A DNA stretch of 64,000 nt from a virus, in IMG/VR virus record IMGVR_UViG_3300045988_154761, positions 96,001 to 160,000 of that record; one strand, given 5' to 3'. The notes under the pieces are model-generated. The model saw only the letters and a program-made list of their open reading frames with translations. It ran no database searches and was not told where the DNA came from. Within the stretch, counting starts at the first letter, position 1. Every line of letters starts with the position of its first letter. Below, in pieces: positions 4,133-51,611 of the stretch. Made by a program: the position numbers and the translations under genes.

Positions 4133-4263
4133 GTAGACTCTAACAGCAACTTTACAATCACAAATGCTATGGGTCTGTTTGTTGGAGGTTCGAATCCTTC
4201 ACTCCCGACCATCGGGAGTTAGCTCAACGGATAGAGCAATAGATTTTGTAAAAATGAGTCTAG
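4133..4263 (+). ncRNA. ACAGCAA closing-helix element, copy E5, enclosing a circularly permuted tRNA-like body
   Basis: TAGACTC (4134-4140) pairs with GAGTCTA (4256-4262); ACAGCAA 4143-4149; order is TCTGT, variable region, T arm GGAGG-TTCGAAT-CCTTC, ACTCCCG-A-CCA-T-CGGGAGT, D arm GCTC-AACGGATA-GAGC, ATAGA. Confidence 0.65.
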
Positions 4264-9584: not shown

Positions 9585-9671
9585 GTAGACACTAACAGCA
9601 ATTAAAATAAAAATACTGGGAAATATATTTAATTGGAATAAATACTTTTTTAGATTTTTAAAGTGTCTAGG
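9585..9671 (+). ncRNA. ACAGCAA closing-helix element, copy E9 (short form)
   Basis: TAGACAC (9586-9592) pairs with GTGTCTA (9663-9669); ACAGCAA 9595-9601. Confidence 0.6.
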
Positions 9672-9680
9672 ATTTTATAT

Positions 9681-9816
9681 GGGGATGTATCTCAATTGGT
9701 CAGAGGGCCCGACTTATGTTTTAGTAGTTTAAAAGTAAAACTTTTAATGCAAGTGCAAGACTTGTCTAAAACACCAAATCGGGAAGTTGAGTGTTCGAGC
9801 CACTCCATTCCCACCA
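9681..9816 (+). tRNA. tRNA gene with a 59 nt insertion in the anticodon loop (Ile-UAU if excised at 37/38)
   Basis: acceptor GGGGATG/CATTCCC, D arm TCTC-AATTGGTCA-GAGG, anticodon stem CCCGA (9708-9712)/TCGGG (9779-9783) separated by 66 nt starting CTTATG, T arm GAGTG-TTCGAGC-CACTC, CCA. Confidence 0.65.
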
Positions 9817-20937: not shown

Positions 20938-21896
20938 TGAGCAATATTAAGACTTATCAGAATGGCAACTATATGGTTTCCATCGACTTGGCAAATGGAA
21001 CCAAGACTCGTGAAAATGATTTGAGCTTTTTCAAGGCTGATTTTCCAGAGTGCTGTGATTATAAAATTACTAATAATTGCGCACAGGGTTGTAGCTTTTG
21101 TCATGAGAACAGTACTCCAAATGGTAAGCATGGTGACATTCTTGGTGAACAGGGTATCAAGGTTCTTGAAAGTTTCCATGAATACACCGAGCTTGCAATC
21201 GGAGGTGGAGACCCTCTTTCTCATCCTGATTTGATTCCTTTCCTTCGTAAGTGTAAGGAGCTGAATCTTATCCCTAACATGACTGTTCACCAGTTTTCCT
21301 TTATGAAGAATCAGGAGCTTATTGAACAGCTTGTTAATGAGAAGCTTATTTATGGTATTGGTGTCTCTCTTGTTGACCCTCTTCAGCCGCAGTTCCTTAA
21401 GACTATTTCTAAGTATCCTAATCTTGTTCTTCATGTTATTAATGGCATTGTAACGATGGATACTCTTCGTGCTCTTAAGAATCGTGGGCTTAAGATTCTT
21501 ATTCTTGGCTATAAGACTGTTCGTCGTGGTGAAGAGTATGTTAAGGAAGATTGGGCTAAGGAACTTGTAACAAATAAGCAGAAGGCAATCTATGATAATC
21601 TTGGTCGTATGATTGATGAAAAGTGGTTCTCTGTTATTAGTTTTGACAATCTTGCTATTAAACAGCTTGAGCCTAAACGTCTTATGTCTGAGGAAGATTG
21701 GAATACTATGTATATGGGCGAAGACTATGATAATATGTCTAGTGCTTCTATGTACATTGATGCAGTAGAAATGCAGTTTGCTTGTAACTCTTGTGATGTA
21801 AATCATCGTTATGATGTTGGCAATAAGACTGTTACTGAAATGTATCAATTCTTGAGAGATTTAAATGGAGGAAACAACGATGAAACAAATTCGTAA
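20937..21896 (+). CDS. radical SAM enzyme (substrate unknown)
   Basis: CAQGCSFC (CxxxCxxC) near the N-terminus and AIGGGDPLSHPD (GGE-like SAM motif). Confidence 0.8.
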   Translation: MSNIKTYQNGNYMVSIDLANGTKTRENDLSFFKADFPECCDYKITNNCAQGCSFCHENSTPNGKHGDILGEQGIKVLESFHEYTELAIGGGDPLSHPDLIPFLRKCKELNLIPNMTVHQFSFMKNQELIEQLVNEKLIYGIGVSLVDPLQPQFLKTISKYPNLVLHVINGIVTMDTLRALKNRGLKILILGYKTVRRGEEYVKEDWAKELVTNKQKAIYDNLGRMIDEKWFSVISFDNLAIKQLEPKRLMSEEDWNTMYMGEDYDNMSSASMYIDAVEMQFACNSCDVNHRYDVGNKTVTEMYQFLRDLNGGNNDETNS

Positions 21897-23378: not shown

Positions 23379-23440
23379 TTAGACTCTCACAGCAAACTAC
23401 AAAAAACTTTTATTTTGAAAAAAGGACAAAAAGAGTCTAG
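23379..23440 (+). ncRNA. ACAGCAA closing-helix element, copy E11, in the 5' leader of the vWA protein gene
   Basis: TAGACTCT (23380-23387) pairs with AGAGTCTA (23432-23439); ACAGCAA 23389-23395. Confidence 0.6.
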
Positions 23441-23462
23441 TCCTTTAGAAAAGGAGAAAATT

Positions 23463-25181
23463 ATGTATAACTACAACAATCCTAACAAGAAGAATAACAC
23501 TAAGGCTTGGGCTCCTAAGCCTGAAAAGCCTGTTACTAAGTCCAACCGAGTTAGCCGTAAGGCTTCTTTCATGGACAAGGTTGAGAATACTGCTAAGGGT
23601 TACTACACTCAGATTGCAGTTCCTTCTCTTCCTGCTGATAAGCAGTACACTTCTAACGGTGCTATTGCATACAAGTCCTCTGGTTCTGCTCTTCTTGACA
23701 TCAACACTTCCATCTCTGCTCTTCGTAGCCTGCCCGATGGTGATATTGTGAAGAAGTTCCGTGCAGCTTATTGTGAGAATCCTCGTCTCGCTATTCGTTG
23801 GCTGTTCTATGCTGGCGATATCCGTGAGGGTCAGGGTGAGCGCCGTCTCTTCCAGATTTGCCTTAAGGATATGATGAACAATGGTGGTGCTCAGATTGTG
23901 GCGAACCTGATTCCTATGATTCCTGAGTATTCTCGTTGGGATTATATCTATGTTGTCATGGATAATCCTACTACTAAGCCTGTTGTTCGTGAACTGATTC
24001 GTAAGCAGTGGAAGGAAGATATGGCTAATATGAAGAAGGGCAAGTCCATTAGCCTTATGGCGAAGTGGCTTGATAGTGCTTCTTCTCACAGCCATGATAC
24101 TCGTAAGCGTGGTCTTAAGACTATGGATATGCTCGGTCTGACTGAGCGTGAGTATCGCAAGGGTCTGTCTGCTCTTCGTAAGCACCTTGACGTTGTTGAG
24201 CGTAAGATGTCTTCTCAGAATTGGCAGAGCATTGATTATGAGACTGTTCCCTCTAAGGCAAACCTTAATTACAATAAGGCTTTCCTTCGTAATGATGAGG
24301 AGCGCCGTCGTGCCTATCTGAACGCTCTTACTAAGGGCGAGGCAAAGATTAATTCTTCTGTATCTAATCCTTGTGACATTGTTCACAAGTATTGCGAGAA
24401 TGATTGGGGTACTTCTCCTCATTCTTATGATGCCGCCCTTGAAGGCATGTGGAAGGCTCTTCCCAATCTTGTAACCGATGATAGTTCCACTATTGTTGTT
24501 GCCGATGGCTCTGGTTCTATGTGCGCTACTGTTGGTCGTACTCGTATGACTGCTCTTGAGGTTGCTAACTCTCTTGCAATTTACTTTGCAGAGCGTGCTA
24601 AGGGTGCATATAAGGGTCGTTACATTACTTTCTCTGCACGTCCTCAGATGGTTAATGTTAATCATGACTCTTTGCGTGCAAATCTTAGGGAAGCTGCTCG
24701 TCATAGTGAGATTGCTAATACCAACCTTGAAGCAGTATTTGACCTGATTCTTGATACTGCAATTAAGAATCATTCTCCTCAGAGTGATTTGCCAAAGAAT
24801 ATTCTGATTATCAGTGATGGTGGTTGGGATTCTATGGTAAATATTCGTACTCTTAATACTGGCAGTGGTTATGGTTATTGGGGCTATAACAGCACTCGTG
24901 CTACTGCTAAGGAAGCTCCTGCTTTCCTTAAGTCCATTGAGCAGAAGTACAAGAACGCTGGATATGAGATGAGCAAAATTTGTTATTGGAATGTTTGCGG
25001 AAACGGTACTACTGGTAACGGTCTTCCCATGACTAAGAATGATTATGGTATCATGGTCAGCGGGTTTAGTATCCAAACTTTGAAAATGATTCTCAGCGGC
25101 AAGACTAATCCTTGGGATGCACTTATGGAAGTGGTTTTGGATAAGCGTTACGACAAGATTGAAGAGCTAGCTTTTAAGTAA
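23463..25181 (+). CDS. DUF2828-like protein: helical N-terminal region plus C-terminal vWA domain with MIDAS
   Basis: ATG 23463 after AAGGAGA; NGAIAYKSSGSALLD, RLAIRWLFYAGDIREGQGERRLF, VVADGSGSM (DxSxS). Confidence 0.7.
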   Translation: MYNYNNPNKKNNTKAWAPKPEKPVTKSNRVSRKASFMDKVENTAKGYYTQIAVPSLPADKQYTSNGAIAYKSSGSALLDINTSISALRSLPDGDIVKKFRAAYCENPRLAIRWLFYAGDIREGQGERRLFQICLKDMMNNGGAQIVANLIPMIPEYSRWDYIYVVMDNPTTKPVVRELIRKQWKEDMANMKKGKSISLMAKWLDSASSHSHDTRKRGLKTMDMLGLTEREYRKGLSALRKHLDVVERKMSSQNWQSIDYETVPSKANLNYNKAFLRNDEERRRAYLNALTKGEAKINSSVSNPCDIVHKYCENDWGTSPHSYDAALEGMWKALPNLVTDDSSTIVVADGSGSMCATVGRTRMTALEVANSLAIYFAERAKGAYKGRYITFSARPQMVNVNHDSLRANLREAARHSEIANTNLEAVFDLILDTAIKNHSPQSDLPKNILIISDGGWDSMVNIRTLNTGSGYGYWGYNSTRATAKEAPAFLKSIEQKYKNAGYEMSKICYWNVCGNGTTGNGLPMTKNDYGIMVSGFSIQTLKMILSGKTNPWDALMEVVLDKRYDKIEELAFK

Positions 25182-25196
25182 GTTTTAAATATGAAA

Positions 25197-25230
25197 GGGG
25201 AAGAGAATTATTCTCTTCTCCTTTTTATTT
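25197..25230 (+). terminator. intrinsic terminator
   Basis: GAAGAG/CTCTTC stem followed by CTTTTTATTT. Confidence 0.6.
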
Positions 25231-25244
25231 ATAAAGGAGATATA

Positions 25245-26477
25245 ATGTCTTAGTATATTAGTTAGGTTTCATCTTTAATGGAACAATGGGATTTTGATAA
25301 AAATACTGTTTAGCCTAATGAAATAACAACAGGAGCGCATCAAAAAGTATTTTGGAAATGTCCTGTTTGCAAAGGTAAATGGAGTAATATTCCCCATACA
25401 GCAGGAAAAAATAGTTGCCCATATTGTAATAAAAGAAAAGTTTTAAAAGGTTTTAATGATTTAAAAACTAAAAATCCAGAATTACTTTGTGATTGGGATT
25501 ATTCTTTAAATCAAATTTTACCAGAAGAAGTTACTTTTTATTCAAATAAGAAAGTTTTTTGGAGATGTCACAAATGCGGATATTCATGGGAAGCAACTAT
25601 TAATAGTAGGACAAGACTTCATGCAGGATGCCCAAATTGTGCAAAAGGACATAAAACGAGTTTTCCCGAACAAGCAATATTTTTTTATTTAAGTAAACAT
25701 TTCTTTTGTATTAACAATTATAAATATGATAATACAAAAAAAGAAATAGATATATATATTCCATCTTTGCGTATCGGAATAGAATATAATGGAAGTTATT
25801 ATCATTCAAAATCTTAGACTAAGGATGAGAAAAAGAAAAAAGATTTGCAAAATTTAGATATTTAGTTAATTACAATAAAAAATAGCAAAGAGGACAAAAA
25901 CAACAACAATCTTATAGAACATAAATTAAATGATTCTTCTTTAGAATGGGCCATAAAACAACTTTTAAAAAATTTATATCTGGAAGATAATATTTCTTTA
26001 AACAAAGATTATCAAGATATTTTAAAATAGTATAAACAAAAAGAATATCAAAATTCTTTGGGAGAATTATATCCAAATTTATTAGAAGAATGGGATTATG
26101 ATAAAAATGTTTTAAATCCTTTATTAATATCTCCAAATTCTAACAAAAAAGCTTGGTGGAAATGTAAAAAATGCGGACGCAGTTGGCAAGCTGCTATTAA
26201 TAGTAGAACCCCTCCTCGTAGTAATGGTTGTAAAAAATGCGTGGGAGTTTATGAAAAAGCTGTTCTTTGTTTAGAAAACAGAAAAATTTATATCGGACTT
26301 AACAAACTTTGTAAAAAGTTAAACGTTTCAAGTGGAGCAATAACAACTTGCATAAAAAGAAGTAAAAACAAAATCGGACATTGTAAAGGATATCATTGGA
26401 AAATATATATTTTACATAAAGAGAAAAATTTTTCTTGGCCTTTCTCTGATGAGTTAACTTACGAAAGAGAGGGGTAA
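25245..26477 (+). CDS. homing-endonuclease-like protein: repeated treble-clef zinc ribbons flanking a nuclease-like core; 6 in-frame TAG
   Basis: ATG after AAGGAGA; frame checked; three W(D/E)xDKN...W.C..C...W......R.....C..C modules; EIDIYIPSLRIGIEYNGSYYH core; the track ORF 26058-26477 is its 3' part. Confidence 0.65.
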
Positions 26478-30746: not shown

Positions 30747-31757
30747 ATGTTTTTTAAGAAGCCAGAAAAAAAGATTATTCTCGAATATGACTCTTACCCT
30801 GCATCTAGTGTAGATTTTGAAGAATCTTCCAGCGAATCTTACACGAATAATCTTCCTAACCACATAATTATCGACAATCATATTTGGGAATATGAAAAAA
30901 TGGAAGATGTACCTTTTCCTGTTGGAGAAGATTGGGAATGGATTGATTGTTACAAGGCTCTTTATAAGACCTATTATGAAAAAATAAAATATGTAGGTCC
31001 AAGTAGAAAGTTCGTATATGAACTTAACAAAGTTTATGCCTTACCAGAAGGAGAAGAAGAATTTAGCAAAGTGGATTACTGTGGCAATGGTTTTCATGCT
31101 TGCTTAACTGTAAAAGATGCTCTGAAATGGTATAATTATATTTCATATGTTTCAAATTATGGTTATACTTATTCTGTTAGTGTTAAATTAACCGTTGTTG
31201 CAAAAGCAAAACTTTTGGTTAATAAAAAAGATTTATCAAACTGCTATGGAAAGCAAAATCTTGATAAAGGCAAAATTGTTGGTAAAGCGATTGTATTAAC
31301 TGGTTTTGTTAGTCCAGAAGAAGTTTACTCTAATCGAGAACAAGATATGTATTGGACCAGTAGTATTCTTAATAGTAATGCTTGCGATTATTTAAAATCT
31401 GCTTGTAAAACTAAAGAGGTTAGTTTAAACACTCTCGAAAAACTGACAAAAAATCTTAATATCACTCTCTTTGATTATAAAAAAATGCTTAATCTTGTTG
31501 AGAATGGCAAACATTTTGATATGACTTATGCTCAATGTATGTTTGATGTATATATTGACGAAGATAAAAAAGTTTCTCAGTGTTTAAACATGAATTATGG
31601 TCATGTATTGGCAGAAGAAATCATCAGCCATCTTGATTATCGACTTGCTATAATTGCTATAAAATTGGCTGACAATGATGATGCTTATAACAGAAGTTTA
31701 TCCGTAGCAGAAAAGATGCAAATTCTTTATTCTCATCAGATGCTTTCTAAAAAGTAA
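30747..31757 (+). CDS. hypothetical protein (336 aa)
   Basis: ATG after AAAGGGGAA; family not recognised. Confidence 0.75.
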   Translation: MFFKKPEKKIILEYDSYPASSVDFEESSSESYTNNLPNHIIIDNHIWEYEKMEDVPFPVGEDWEWIDCYKALYKTYYEKIKYVGPSRKFVYELNKVYALPEGEEEFSKVDYCGNGFHACLTVKDALKWYNYISYVSNYGYTYSVSVKLTVVAKAKLLVNKKDLSNCYGKQNLDKGKIVGKAIVLTGFVSPEEVYSNREQDMYWTSSILNSNACDYLKSACKTKEVSLNTLEKLTKNLNITLFDYKKMLNLVENGKHFDMTYAQCMFDVYIDEDKKVSQCLNMNYGHVLAEEIISHLDYRLAIIAIKLADNDDAYNRSLSVAEKMQILYSHQMLSKK

Positions 31758-31769
31758 ATTAATAAGTAG

Positions 31770-31798
31770 TTGACAAACTCGAAAGAGTATGTTAATAT
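31770..31798 (+). promoter_or_regulatory. sigma70/sigmaA-like promoter of the hairpin sRNA
   Basis: TTGACA 31770-31775, 17 nt, TGT-TAATAT (31793-31798). Confidence 0.7.
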
Positions 31799-31804
31799 AA
31801 TAAT

Positions 31805-31930
31805 AAGAACTGTGGTACAATTTACCTCCTTATAATAGACTGAATTTGCTAATAAGGCCACCTCCTTTTTCGTATTTTGTTCATGTTTGTTTCCTCCAAA
31901 AACAAATTTTGTACCACAGTTCTTTTTTAT
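31805..31930 (+). ncRNA. ~125 nt hairpin RNA (sRNA or attenuator) carrying three CCUCC motifs
   Basis: 16 bp perfect arms AAGAACTGTGGTACAA (31805-31820)/TTGTACCACAGTTCTT (31909-31924) followed by a T-run; CCTCC at 31825-31829, 31861-31865 and 31893-31897; the predicted TSS coincides with the 5' arm. Confidence 0.55.
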
Positions 31931-31952
31931 TCCTTTGTAAAGGAGCTTGTTA

Positions 31953-32177
31953 ATGAGATTGAATGATGTATCTCTAATAAGTTTTGCTCTTTATCTTTTA
32001 TGCGGGTTTGCCGTAACATATAATGTTTATAATTGTCCTGCTAATAAAAATGATAAAGAAGTAACCTTGTTGCATTATTTAACTTTGATTTTTTGCTGGC
32101 CTATTGCTCTTGTTATGGCAGCAATTTATTGGTTTAAGATTCAAAGTGAAATAAGAAAACAGAAGAAAATTAAATAA
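31953..32177 (+). CDS. small membrane protein (74 aa)
   Basis: ATG 7 nt after AAAGGAG; two hydrophobic helices. Confidence 0.6.
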   Translation: MRLNDVSLISFALYLLCGFAVTYNVYNCPANKNDKEVTLLHYLTLIFCWPIALVMAAIYWFKIQSEIRKQKKIK

Positions 32178-32182
32178 AACTC

Positions 32183-32211
32183 TTGACAACAGACTCTTTT
32201 TGGTTTATACT
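32183..32211 (+). promoter_or_regulatory. sigma70/sigmaA-like promoter inside an anti-SD/SD hairpin
   Basis: TTGACA 32183-32188, 17 nt, TATACT 32206-32211; AGACTCTTTT (32191-32200) pairs with AAAGGAGTCT (32232-32241). Confidence 0.65.
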
Positions 32212-51418: not shown

Positions 51419-51611
51419 CAAAAACGTACATTTTAAAAAATTGATGATTTTTTAAACCCTTATTTTATATGGCTTTAAATGAGGTCAGGTCAAAATTTGT
51501 CTGTAGATATATTATATATTATTCTTAGGACGAATTTTGACCTGACCCTCTTAAAACCCTTATATTTACTGTATTTAAAAATTTGCTAAAATTTCAAAAT
51601 GTACGTTTTTG
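51419..51611. repeat. 193 bp nested inverted-repeat element
   Basis: outer 16 bp perfect arms CAAAAACGTACATTTT (51419-51434)/AAAATGTACGTTTTTG (51596-51611); inner 15 bp arms GGTCAGGTCAAAATT (51483-51497)/AATTTTGACCTGACC (51533-51547); direct repeats AAACCCTTAT. Confidence 0.8.

Follow-up and report, generated by a model that had tools for sequence, protein, structure and literature searches.

Small RNAs (sRNAs) which use C-rich sequences to reach the Shine-Dalgarno (SD) region of mRNAs are the closest described systems to the element reported here. LhrC of Listeria monocytogenes carries three redundant CU-rich motifs, each of which can bind the SD region of an mRNA (lapB) and block its translation (PMC4132741), RsaE/RoxS and Staphylococcus aureus RNAIII similarly pair unpaired C-rich motifs with SDs, several per molecule (PMC4132741), and the cia-dependent csRNAs of streptococci combine a CCUCCU anti-SD with anti-start-codon stretches (PMC4438229). 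Amongst phages, T4 RegB acts with ribosomal protein S1 to inactivate early mRNAs at GGAG SD sites, reprogramming translation (PMC3014915). The element in question lies at positions 31770-31930, on the + strand, of a 64,000-nucleotide stretch of viral DNA (positions 96,001 to 160,000 of IMG/VR record IMGVR_UViG_3300045988_154761), which we refer to as the window and to which coordinates refer unless a relative is named. We read it as a discrete, trans-acting, CU-rich/anti-SD sRNA, encoded on an insertable cassette in a clade of human-gut phages whose genomes are large (~150-225 kb) and low in GC, an interpretation to which we give an even chance. To our knowledge, base-pairing sRNAs have seldom been described in virulent or large phages infecting Gram-positive gut bacteria, and as far as we searched the literature no phage sRNA composed of repeated anti-SD copies was found.

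Like LhrC, the element would specify a ~100-nt, G-poor RNA in a low-GC Gram-positive setting, with its motifs in loops and single-stranded stretches. The two share no sequence or Rfam match however, and they differ in the motif itself (UCCC in LhrC, CCUCC(UU) here), in architecture (separate stem-loops plus a terminator in LhrC, all motifs inside one 16-bp terminal stem which is itself the terminator here) and in setting, LhrC being chromosomal, stress-induced and multicopy, whilst the element is phage-borne, single-copy and preceded by a constitutive-looking promoter; target binding has been shown for LhrC and is a prediction here. A csRNA-like layout is seen at the third motif, which has a CAU eight nt upstream, although this anti-AUG is not conserved in the element. 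The csRNAs also possess a CiaR-dependent promoter (NTTAAG-N5-TTTAAG) and two stem-loops flanking a ~40-nt unpaired stretch, whereas the element has no CiaR repeat in 31740-31800, holds its motifs within one terminal stem and has no Rfam match. RsaE/RoxS and RNAIII are different sequence families, host-encoded, with known regulons and no homology to the element, and RegB, a protein endonuclease which also lacks homology, is the closest functional analogue, in purpose only. A search of 31770-31930 with Rfam (release 15) found no family at its gathering score, and relaxing the cut-off to E ≤ 10 added nothing but noise (rli24 with 13.8 bits, where its gathering score is 100, and mir-1814 with 13 bits). 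We regard the element as a probable new sequence family, with an apparently novel architecture and carrier within a known class of regulator. At the level of prediction it has what marks that class: its own promoter and intrinsic terminator, presence or absence as a whole, and C-rich, SD-complementary motifs which are predicted to be unpaired and are kept as their surroundings diverge (one relative, L118, excepted; L numbers denote loci in other contigs).

Anatomy of the promoter, closing stem and U-run

The element opens with a sigma-70-type promoter (31770-31798, + strand) composed of a -35 TTGACA (31770-31775), a 17-nt spacer and an extended -10, TGtTAATAT, with the TG at 31790-31791 and TAATAT at 31793-31798; it scored 10/12 with the extended -10 in a consensus scan. 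Seven nt past the -10, at the predicted transcription start, begins the 5' arm of a closing stem (AAGAACTGTGGTACAA, RNA AAGAACUGUGGUACAA; 31805-31820, + strand), whose inverted-repeat match, the 3' arm (TTGTACCACAGTTCTT, RNA UUGUACCACAGUUCUU; 31909-31924, + strand), forms a terminator hairpin with the U-run UUUUAUU (DNA TTTTATT; 31925-31931, + strand). The stem is perfect over 16 bp (an inverted-repeat scan lists the pair as 19 nt at 95%) and encloses 88 nt, with CCTCC on the + strand at 31825, 31861 and 31893. A prior, sequence-only reading of the window had described the promoter, a start about 7 nt after TAATAT at the first base of the stem, the perfect 16-bp stem with a T-run after its 3' arm, and the three CCTCC copies in the enclosed stretch, all of which we recovered at the same positions. 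A stable stem followed by a U-rich tract is the form of an intrinsic terminator, and the 16-bp stem with UUUUAUU has that form, albeit an atypical one, with an 88-nt 'loop' and an A-U-rich stem base, and it went uncalled by a consensus terminator scan which accepts loops of up to 8 nt. Transcription from the predicted start to the U-run, the putative site of intrinsic termination and RNA 3' end, would yield a + strand sRNA of ~125 nt (31805-31929), both ends of which are predicted.

In the mechanism we propose, host RNA polymerase would initiate at the strong extended -10 promoter, and the first 16 transcribed bases would pair with the last 16 before the U-run, a single helix both terminating the ~125-nt RNA and sealing its two ends. 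Within this closed stem, a G-poor and largely unstructured interior would display three CCUCC motifs, two of them as CCUCCUU, the mRNA-binding sequence of the 16S tail. By pairing with the GGAGG-type SD regions of particular mRNAs, of the host or of the phage, these could keep the 30S subunit from binding, each molecule offering several redundant seeds, as in LhrC.

The composition and fold of the element are consistent with such an RNA. The RNA of 31800-31932 folds at -33.1 kcal/mol, compared with -14.8 +/- 2.9 in dinucleotide shuffles (z = -6.25, 0/200 as good), the interior contains 19 C against 9 G, opposite to the genome-wide G>C bias and in the top 2% of 88-nt windows, and the CCTCC cluster is the sole spot in the window with three copies within 75 nt. 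The real support for the element beyond chance is comparative.

The promoter is constant in nearly all relatives, with one-base differences only in L060 (ATGT to ATGC), L123 and L118. Its first 22 nt (TTGACAAACTCGAAAGAGTATG, 31770-31791), in whose spacer lies the mini-palindrome ACTC-GAAA-GAGT, also recur without change in unrelated metagenome settings, following A-rich tracts in L091, L092, L107 and L110 and standing directly upstream of two Rfam-called tRNAs in L087 (9561-9861). As the same 22-mer directly precedes tRNA genes in another phage, we read the promoter as a strong one which is probably used for stable RNAs too.

Other promoters in the window (16599, 35139, 36832, 38922, 40752, 43267 and 45666, with weaker cases at 32183, 46373 and 18993) are embedded in terminator hairpins. 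In these the -35 element and spacer supply the 5' arm, in which an anti-SD sequence (ACAACTCCTTATT, for example) is often found, the leader supplies the 3' arm, with the SD of the next gene inside it, and the T-run and ATG come after; hairpin complementarity of at least 9 nt occurred at 7/49 candidate promoters compared with 6/500 random positions. Read-through RNA should terminate at such a hairpin with the SD hidden, whilst RNA begun inside it should have a free SD and no 5' arm, an arrangement which recalls T4 genes e, soc and I-TevI (PMC3014915).

With compact terminator/promoter modules so common between the genes of this phage, the element might be no more than transcription punctuation, a terminator of the upstream 336-aa gene plus an ordinary promoter whose RNA is a by-product, and its position at a gene boundary among many independent transcription units would suit that role. 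The order of its parts does not: the promoter precedes the terminator, which is the wrong way round for an insulator, and the promoter's own transcripts would terminate. The phage's usual design embeds the promoter inside the hairpin, whereas the promoter at 31770 lies outside it, therefore its own transcript would carry both arms and should terminate, the layout expected if a short RNA is the product. Termination also has no need of an 88-nt G-poor interior with three conserved, accessible motifs, and one relative (L085) retains a long, open, CU-rich loop despite a replaced stem. We consider punctuation an improbable explanation.

Gain, loss and sequence variation of the cassette

Homologues of the protein encoded downstream of the element, a 74-aa two-helix membrane protein (gene at 31953, with the SD AAAGGAG at 31939-31945), were followed to the contigs which carry them. 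The same locus was found in 14 IMG/VR contigs (116-220 kb, one dataset) and in >20 further contigs, at least two of which are labelled human gut, and the element is present in >40 related gut-metagenome phage contigs. The cassette spans approximately 31758-31938 (+ strand), from the stop of the upstream 336-aa gene (30747-31757, + strand) to the SD of the membrane-protein gene. It is missing from several relatives: L082-L084 (80% amino acid identity, one contig of 417 kb) and L086 (73%) have no element between the flanking genes, the gap from the upstream 334-339-aa gene to the membrane gene being 11-16 nt, in L119-121 the flanking genes overlap and no element is present, and in L126 a 59-aa open reading frame (ORF) lies 11 nt past the upstream gene, with no cassette. 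Neither the promoter nor the RNA core occurred elsewhere in the DNA examined from these cassette-less loci. In L118 the upstream 336-aa gene is deleted and the cassette retained, and in L050 and L094 a 1.36-kb TnpB insertion right after the T-run parts the element, which is intact, from the membrane gene, replacing window 31932-31951 including that gene's SD. The stretch from ~31758 to ~31938 thus comes and goes in one piece, and is no obligatory leader of the gene at 31953. This presence and absence, the + strand stem pairing described below and the use of the same promoter before tRNA genes all lend good support to the promoter-to-terminator unit for a hairpin RNA put forward by the sequence-only reading, the transcript itself being predicted.

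The upstream 336-aa gene is itself hypervariable, forming >100 clusters at 90% identity and falling to 41% identity in otherwise syntenic phages with conserved flanks. The TnpB insertion (L050 7178-8541, also in L094) comprises a 383-aa gene with Pfam OrfB_IS605, Cas12f1-like TNB and HTH domains plus ~190 nt of 3' sequence, and the element showed no similarity to it above shuffled controls. An origin of the element as a miniature inverted-repeat transposable element or an IS200-IS605 end was considered and rejected, the element being single-copy in the window and dissimilar in sequence to the adjacent TnpB insertion; the stem arm similarly occurs once in the window in a repeat search.

A cis-acting leader of the 74-aa membrane-protein gene, either an attenuator or a 5' stabiliser, would govern how much of the transcription coming from the strong promoter and from further upstream continues into the gene, and its CCUCC might mask the gene's SD in read-through RNA; several observations speak for such a leader, which we nevertheless judge unlikely. 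Wherever the cassette is found it stands upstream of the 74-aa gene, with which it forms one highly conserved block, and 31757-31953 contains no other promoter, so transcription of the gene must cross the hairpin. The gene's SD, AAAGGAG, is also complementary to the CUCCUUU of the second motif, and Firmicute 5' stabilisers likewise have their start site at the first base of a stem. A constant position is however also expected from vertical inheritance of one insertion, and the gene exists without the cassette (L082-84, L086 and L119-121, with L126 cassette-less too), so that the obligatory gene association of an attenuator or riboswitch does not hold among the relatives. In L050 and L094 the element has stayed intact with TnpB sequence in place of the SD region and the gene moved away, and it is these relatives, together with the cassette-less ones, which speak against the sequence-only reading's suggestion of an attenuator for the gene at 31953. 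The folds showed neither a ligand-binding core nor an anti-terminator alternative, although no search aimed at mutually exclusive structures was made; the interior is largely unstructured and varies by sequence type, and three conserved motifs exceed the need of one SD. A type I or III toxin-antitoxin pairing with the 74-aa protein was also rejected: some relatives have the gene and no cassette, the RNA lacks an antisense relation to the gene and no true direct repeats lie inside the RNA.

We collected 19 distinct versions of the element, the window-like majority of which we refer to as type A. In type B (L016, L098, L102) the stretch between the stem top and the second motif is rewritten, and in type C (L123) the spacers and stem top are altered. 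Type D (L085) has a promoter identical base for base, followed by a different 13-bp stem (AAGGGUCAUGGUG / CACCAUGGCUCUU) which precedes the U-run UUUAUUUU; its open loop of 44 nt contains UUCUCCCAAC and UUCUCUCCA (CU-rich UCUCCC, UCUCUCC), and the only common ground with the type A RNA is a GUAUUUU..UUCA stretch leading into the CU-rich motif. In L085 the architecture has been kept and the sequence replaced.

Across the 17 distinct type A, B and C sequences, 98.9% of closing-stem cells are standard pairs, L123 having one non-standard pair at the stem top (G opposite A, in our reading). One stem pair is A-U in the window, G.U in L124 and G-C in L123, and five of the six single-base stem transitions give G.U on the + strand, the other A.C; the L085 stem adds two further G.U pairs, and all of the G.U pairs would be A.C mismatches on the minus strand. 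Control shuffles of the pairing were not significant because most stem pairs never vary, and the support from pairing lies in the direction of the changes and in the wholesale replacement of the stem in type D. The changes support retention of pairing in the + strand RNA, in agreement with the promoter and T-run on that strand.

The same substitutions bear on a minus-strand or DNA-level feature, in which the motifs would serve as GGAGG sites for tiny minus-strand ORFs, as a leftward CsrA or ribosome sponge, or as protein-binding DNA repeats. On that strand GGAGG-N8-ATG does open an 11-codon ORF (MNKIRKRRWPY), and the two other GGAGG copies precede GTG and TTG ORFs. The ATG is ACG in L053, L054, L096 and others and is changed in L090, however, and the start of the third ORF is lost in type B; with start codons not conserved, these mini-ORFs were rejected. 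No promoter-like site is directed leftward into the element, the neighbouring genes are all on the + strand, the element is unrepeated elsewhere in the window, and the stem substitutions favour + strand G.U pairs, all of which makes a feature of this kind barely credible. Two further candidates fell on the + strand: an ORF at 31877-31966 has no SD and its ATG becomes GTG, CTG or ATT in variants, and the TATAAT of a would-be internal promoter (31831-31836) is missing from type C and is not accompanied by a -35 element.

CCUCC motifs and their possible targets

The first motif, CCUCCUUAU (31825-31833, + strand), preceded by A in the window and in type C, is kept in types A, B and C although its flanks diverge. 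At the second, CCUCCUUUUU (31861-31870, + strand; CACCUCCUUU in the window), the preceding base varies (A, U or G) and CCUCC is kept, with CA, CU, CG or UCU before it; this motif has decayed only in L118, to CCCCUCUU, in what is a single low-coverage assembly. The third, CCUCC at 31893-31897 (+ strand), occupies the 7-nt loop of a weak 8-bp hairpin (31885-31892 / 31900-31907) and is invariant in 17/17 distinct type A, B and C sequences, whilst type D has UUCUCCCAAC at the homologous place. Together with the CAU at 31882-31884 it is the exact antisense of GGAGG-N8-AUG, although the CAU is not conserved (CGU, CCU or CAUU). Types B and C keep CCUCCUUAU and CCUCCUUUUUCG (CCUCCUU) within rewritten spacers between the first and second motifs. 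Overall, 1/15 motif columns are variable once a one-column shift in type B is corrected (4/15 as aligned), compared with 40/76 columns in the rest of the interior.

In partition-function folds the probability of being unpaired was 0.89-0.98 for the first motif and 0.6-0.88 for the second, and in types A, B and D each of the three came out as single-stranded for the most part (mean probability 0.6-1.0). The sequence-only reading had placed the motifs 'partly in loops', which understates their exposure, since all three are predicted to be mostly unpaired in every variant folded. No conserved interior structure was seen beyond the one weak 8-bp hairpin. Outside the present phage group, a scan of IMG/VR for ACCTCCTT..CCTCCTTT..TCCTCC gave nothing but chance hits, which fell in coding repeats and in antisense ribosome-binding sites.

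In the first motif, the stretch ACCUCCUUA is the same as the end of the E. coli-type 16S 3' tail, and the second, as CACCUCCUUU, is identical over 10 nt to the Firmicute 16S 3' tail. This raises the question of whether the RNA might be a decoy of the 16S 3' tail for a protein, for example a substrate for an abortive-infection nuclease which cuts the anti-SD, or a sponge for an anti-SD factor. The match of the first two motifs beyond the core (ACCUCCUUA and CACCUCCUUU) would suit such a decoy, as would the predicted exposure of several motifs per molecule. Toxins which cut the anti-SD do exist (MazF-mt3), and phages can escape a toxin via antitoxin-like RNA (ToxI-like sequences) (PMC5408214). 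The cassette, moreover, occupies a variable accessory region and is present or absent in relatives, as counter-defence genes often are. However, the bases which extend the 16S match around CCUCC in the first two motifs are not conserved, the third motif and the L085 motifs are unlike the 16S tail outside the core, and we identified no candidate partner protein for what is an attractive but entirely inferential proposal, which we hold to be quite improbable. A bolder form of the anti-SD reading, unlikely in our view, would have a 16S-tail mimic made early and abundantly, which might reprogramme translation globally by sequestering the strongest (GGAGG) host sites whilst the phage sites, mostly of the GGAG[ACU] type, escape; such an RNA would by itself be a device of host takeover or counter-defence directed at the SD/anti-SD interaction.

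Returning to a trans-acting sRNA which pairs with SDs, its possible targets depend on the SDs available. Among ~105 + strand ORFs of the window, the SD is GGAGG in 10, GGAG[ACU] in 35 and GAGG in 17. The very strong GGAGG-type sites ascribed to this genome by the sequence-only reading are thus only partly borne out, being present in ~10/105 genes, the remaining ~90% having no full GGAGG. Complementarity of at least 8 nt to the interior was found in 19/105 translation start regions of the window, compared with 4 in the control. The best candidate target in the window (21866-21885, 12+5 nt complementarity) was rejected, as the site varies in relatives with an unchanged sRNA, and ranking targets by long duplexes in RNAduplex was uninformative and weakly correlated with SD strength. 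The proposal that the CCUCC motifs pair with SDs is plausible given the conservation and predicted accessibility of the motifs and the studied precedents, whilst no conserved target came to light and the sole candidate failed.

Several points weigh against a discrete trans-acting sRNA. The discrete RNA and its ends are predictions, and with 88 nt enclosed and an A-U-rich helix base the efficiency of termination is uncertain. The three-copy CCTCC cluster was reached in 10/200 Markov-1 simulations on either strand (p ~0.05), which is borderline. Most relatives share 83-96% overall identity and the 74-aa gene equals the element in conservation, therefore conservation among type A alone is weak evidence, and the numbers behind the strand bias of stem changes are small (5/6 changes, 7/8 with L085). 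No conserved target was found among the translation start regions in the window. Most phage genes, moreover, have no full GGAGG, and with only ~10% carrying one, blanket titration of the phage's own SDs is unlikely; GGAGG sites of the host are more plausible as targets, as is a subset of those in the phage. As to the host, there is a single weak hint, a relative contig binned in the GTDB as 'uncultured Clostridium sp. UMGS1616'; this contig, which is the phage's own, was the only match in a genome collection.

Should the RNA prove to be made and to work in this way, a phage clade which occurs in many human-gut samples would possess, in RNA form, an equivalent of T4 RegB, acting on translation initiation at the SD. 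It would also offer a compact natural scaffold, in which a closed stem doubles as the terminator and loops expose several seeds, and the presence or absence of the cassette in close relatives provides a ready natural experiment. Were it merely a leader or a terminator, the element would be ordinary.

A Ro60-like protein, a YrlA-like RNA and other features of the window

The window has a GC content of 31%, with 13 tRNAs detected by ARAGORN and many sigma-70-like promoters, and it gave no match to GenBank phages by DNA BLAST or by protein BLAST of one large protein. It encodes a 588-aa Ro60-like protein (23415-25181, + strand) with Pfam DUF2828, DUF7788 and weak vWA matches, and Ro60 structures took each of the top eight places among the PDB matches of its AlphaFold model (predicted local distance difference test, pLDDT, 70), matching along the full length with E values between 4e-6 and 5e-5. 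The family is a large one, with >4,700 metagenome hits.

As Ro60 partners, Y RNAs are ~100-125 nt long with paired ends, a pyrimidine-rich internal loop and a 3' U-tail, and in each of these respects the element is similar; its small size, paired termini, pyrimidine-rich interior and U-tail liken it to YrlA too. Its terminal stem might therefore be imagined to bind the ring of the phage Ro60-like protein and its pyrimidine-rich loop to tether another factor. We find this very improbable. The element gave no Y_RNA or YrlA match even at E ≤ 10, its stem is perfect, without the bulged Ro60-binding helix of Y RNAs, it has no tRNA-like module, and it lies 6.6 kb from the Ro60-like gene with around ten genes between. 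A Y-RNA function would also give no reason for the conservation of CCUCC. The YrlA-like match in the window falls elsewhere, within the tRNA cluster (4157-4255, + strand; Rfam YrlA, 40.6 bits, E 2.6e-6, below the gathering score of 69); its T-arm, acceptor-like hairpin and D-arm follow one another as they do in YrlA. This RNA, more so than the element, is a likely partner of the Ro60-like protein.

An 18-nt motif, GTAGACNCTNACAGCAA(A/T), occurs in 10 copies in the window, all on the + strand (488, 2723, 3422, 4133, 4325, 9252, 9504, 9585, 9838 and 23379), where 0.06 would be expected. Nine copies fall within the tRNA cluster, and the tenth belongs to the 5' leader of the Ro60-like gene. Several have a complement 60-110 nt downstream with which they pair, and stand ahead of T-arm-like sequences; the motif may serve Y-like or tRNA-like RNAs as a common signal, or act as a binding site. 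Rfam also called tRNAs of 125-135 nt which ARAGORN did not report, at 9681-9813 in the window and at 9598-9732 and 9737-9861 in L087, and these appear to be tRNA genes with long insertions. Past the Ro60-like gene, ~880 nt (25182-26057) contain no + strand ORF of at least 30 aa, minus-strand ORFs of up to 74 aa and no Rfam match, and vary in relatives. Finally, a 340-nt intergenic region of flat GC skew holds, at 51419-51611, a nested pair of long inverted repeats (38 nt with 79% and 36 nt with 81% identity), and might function as a replication origin or for divergent control.

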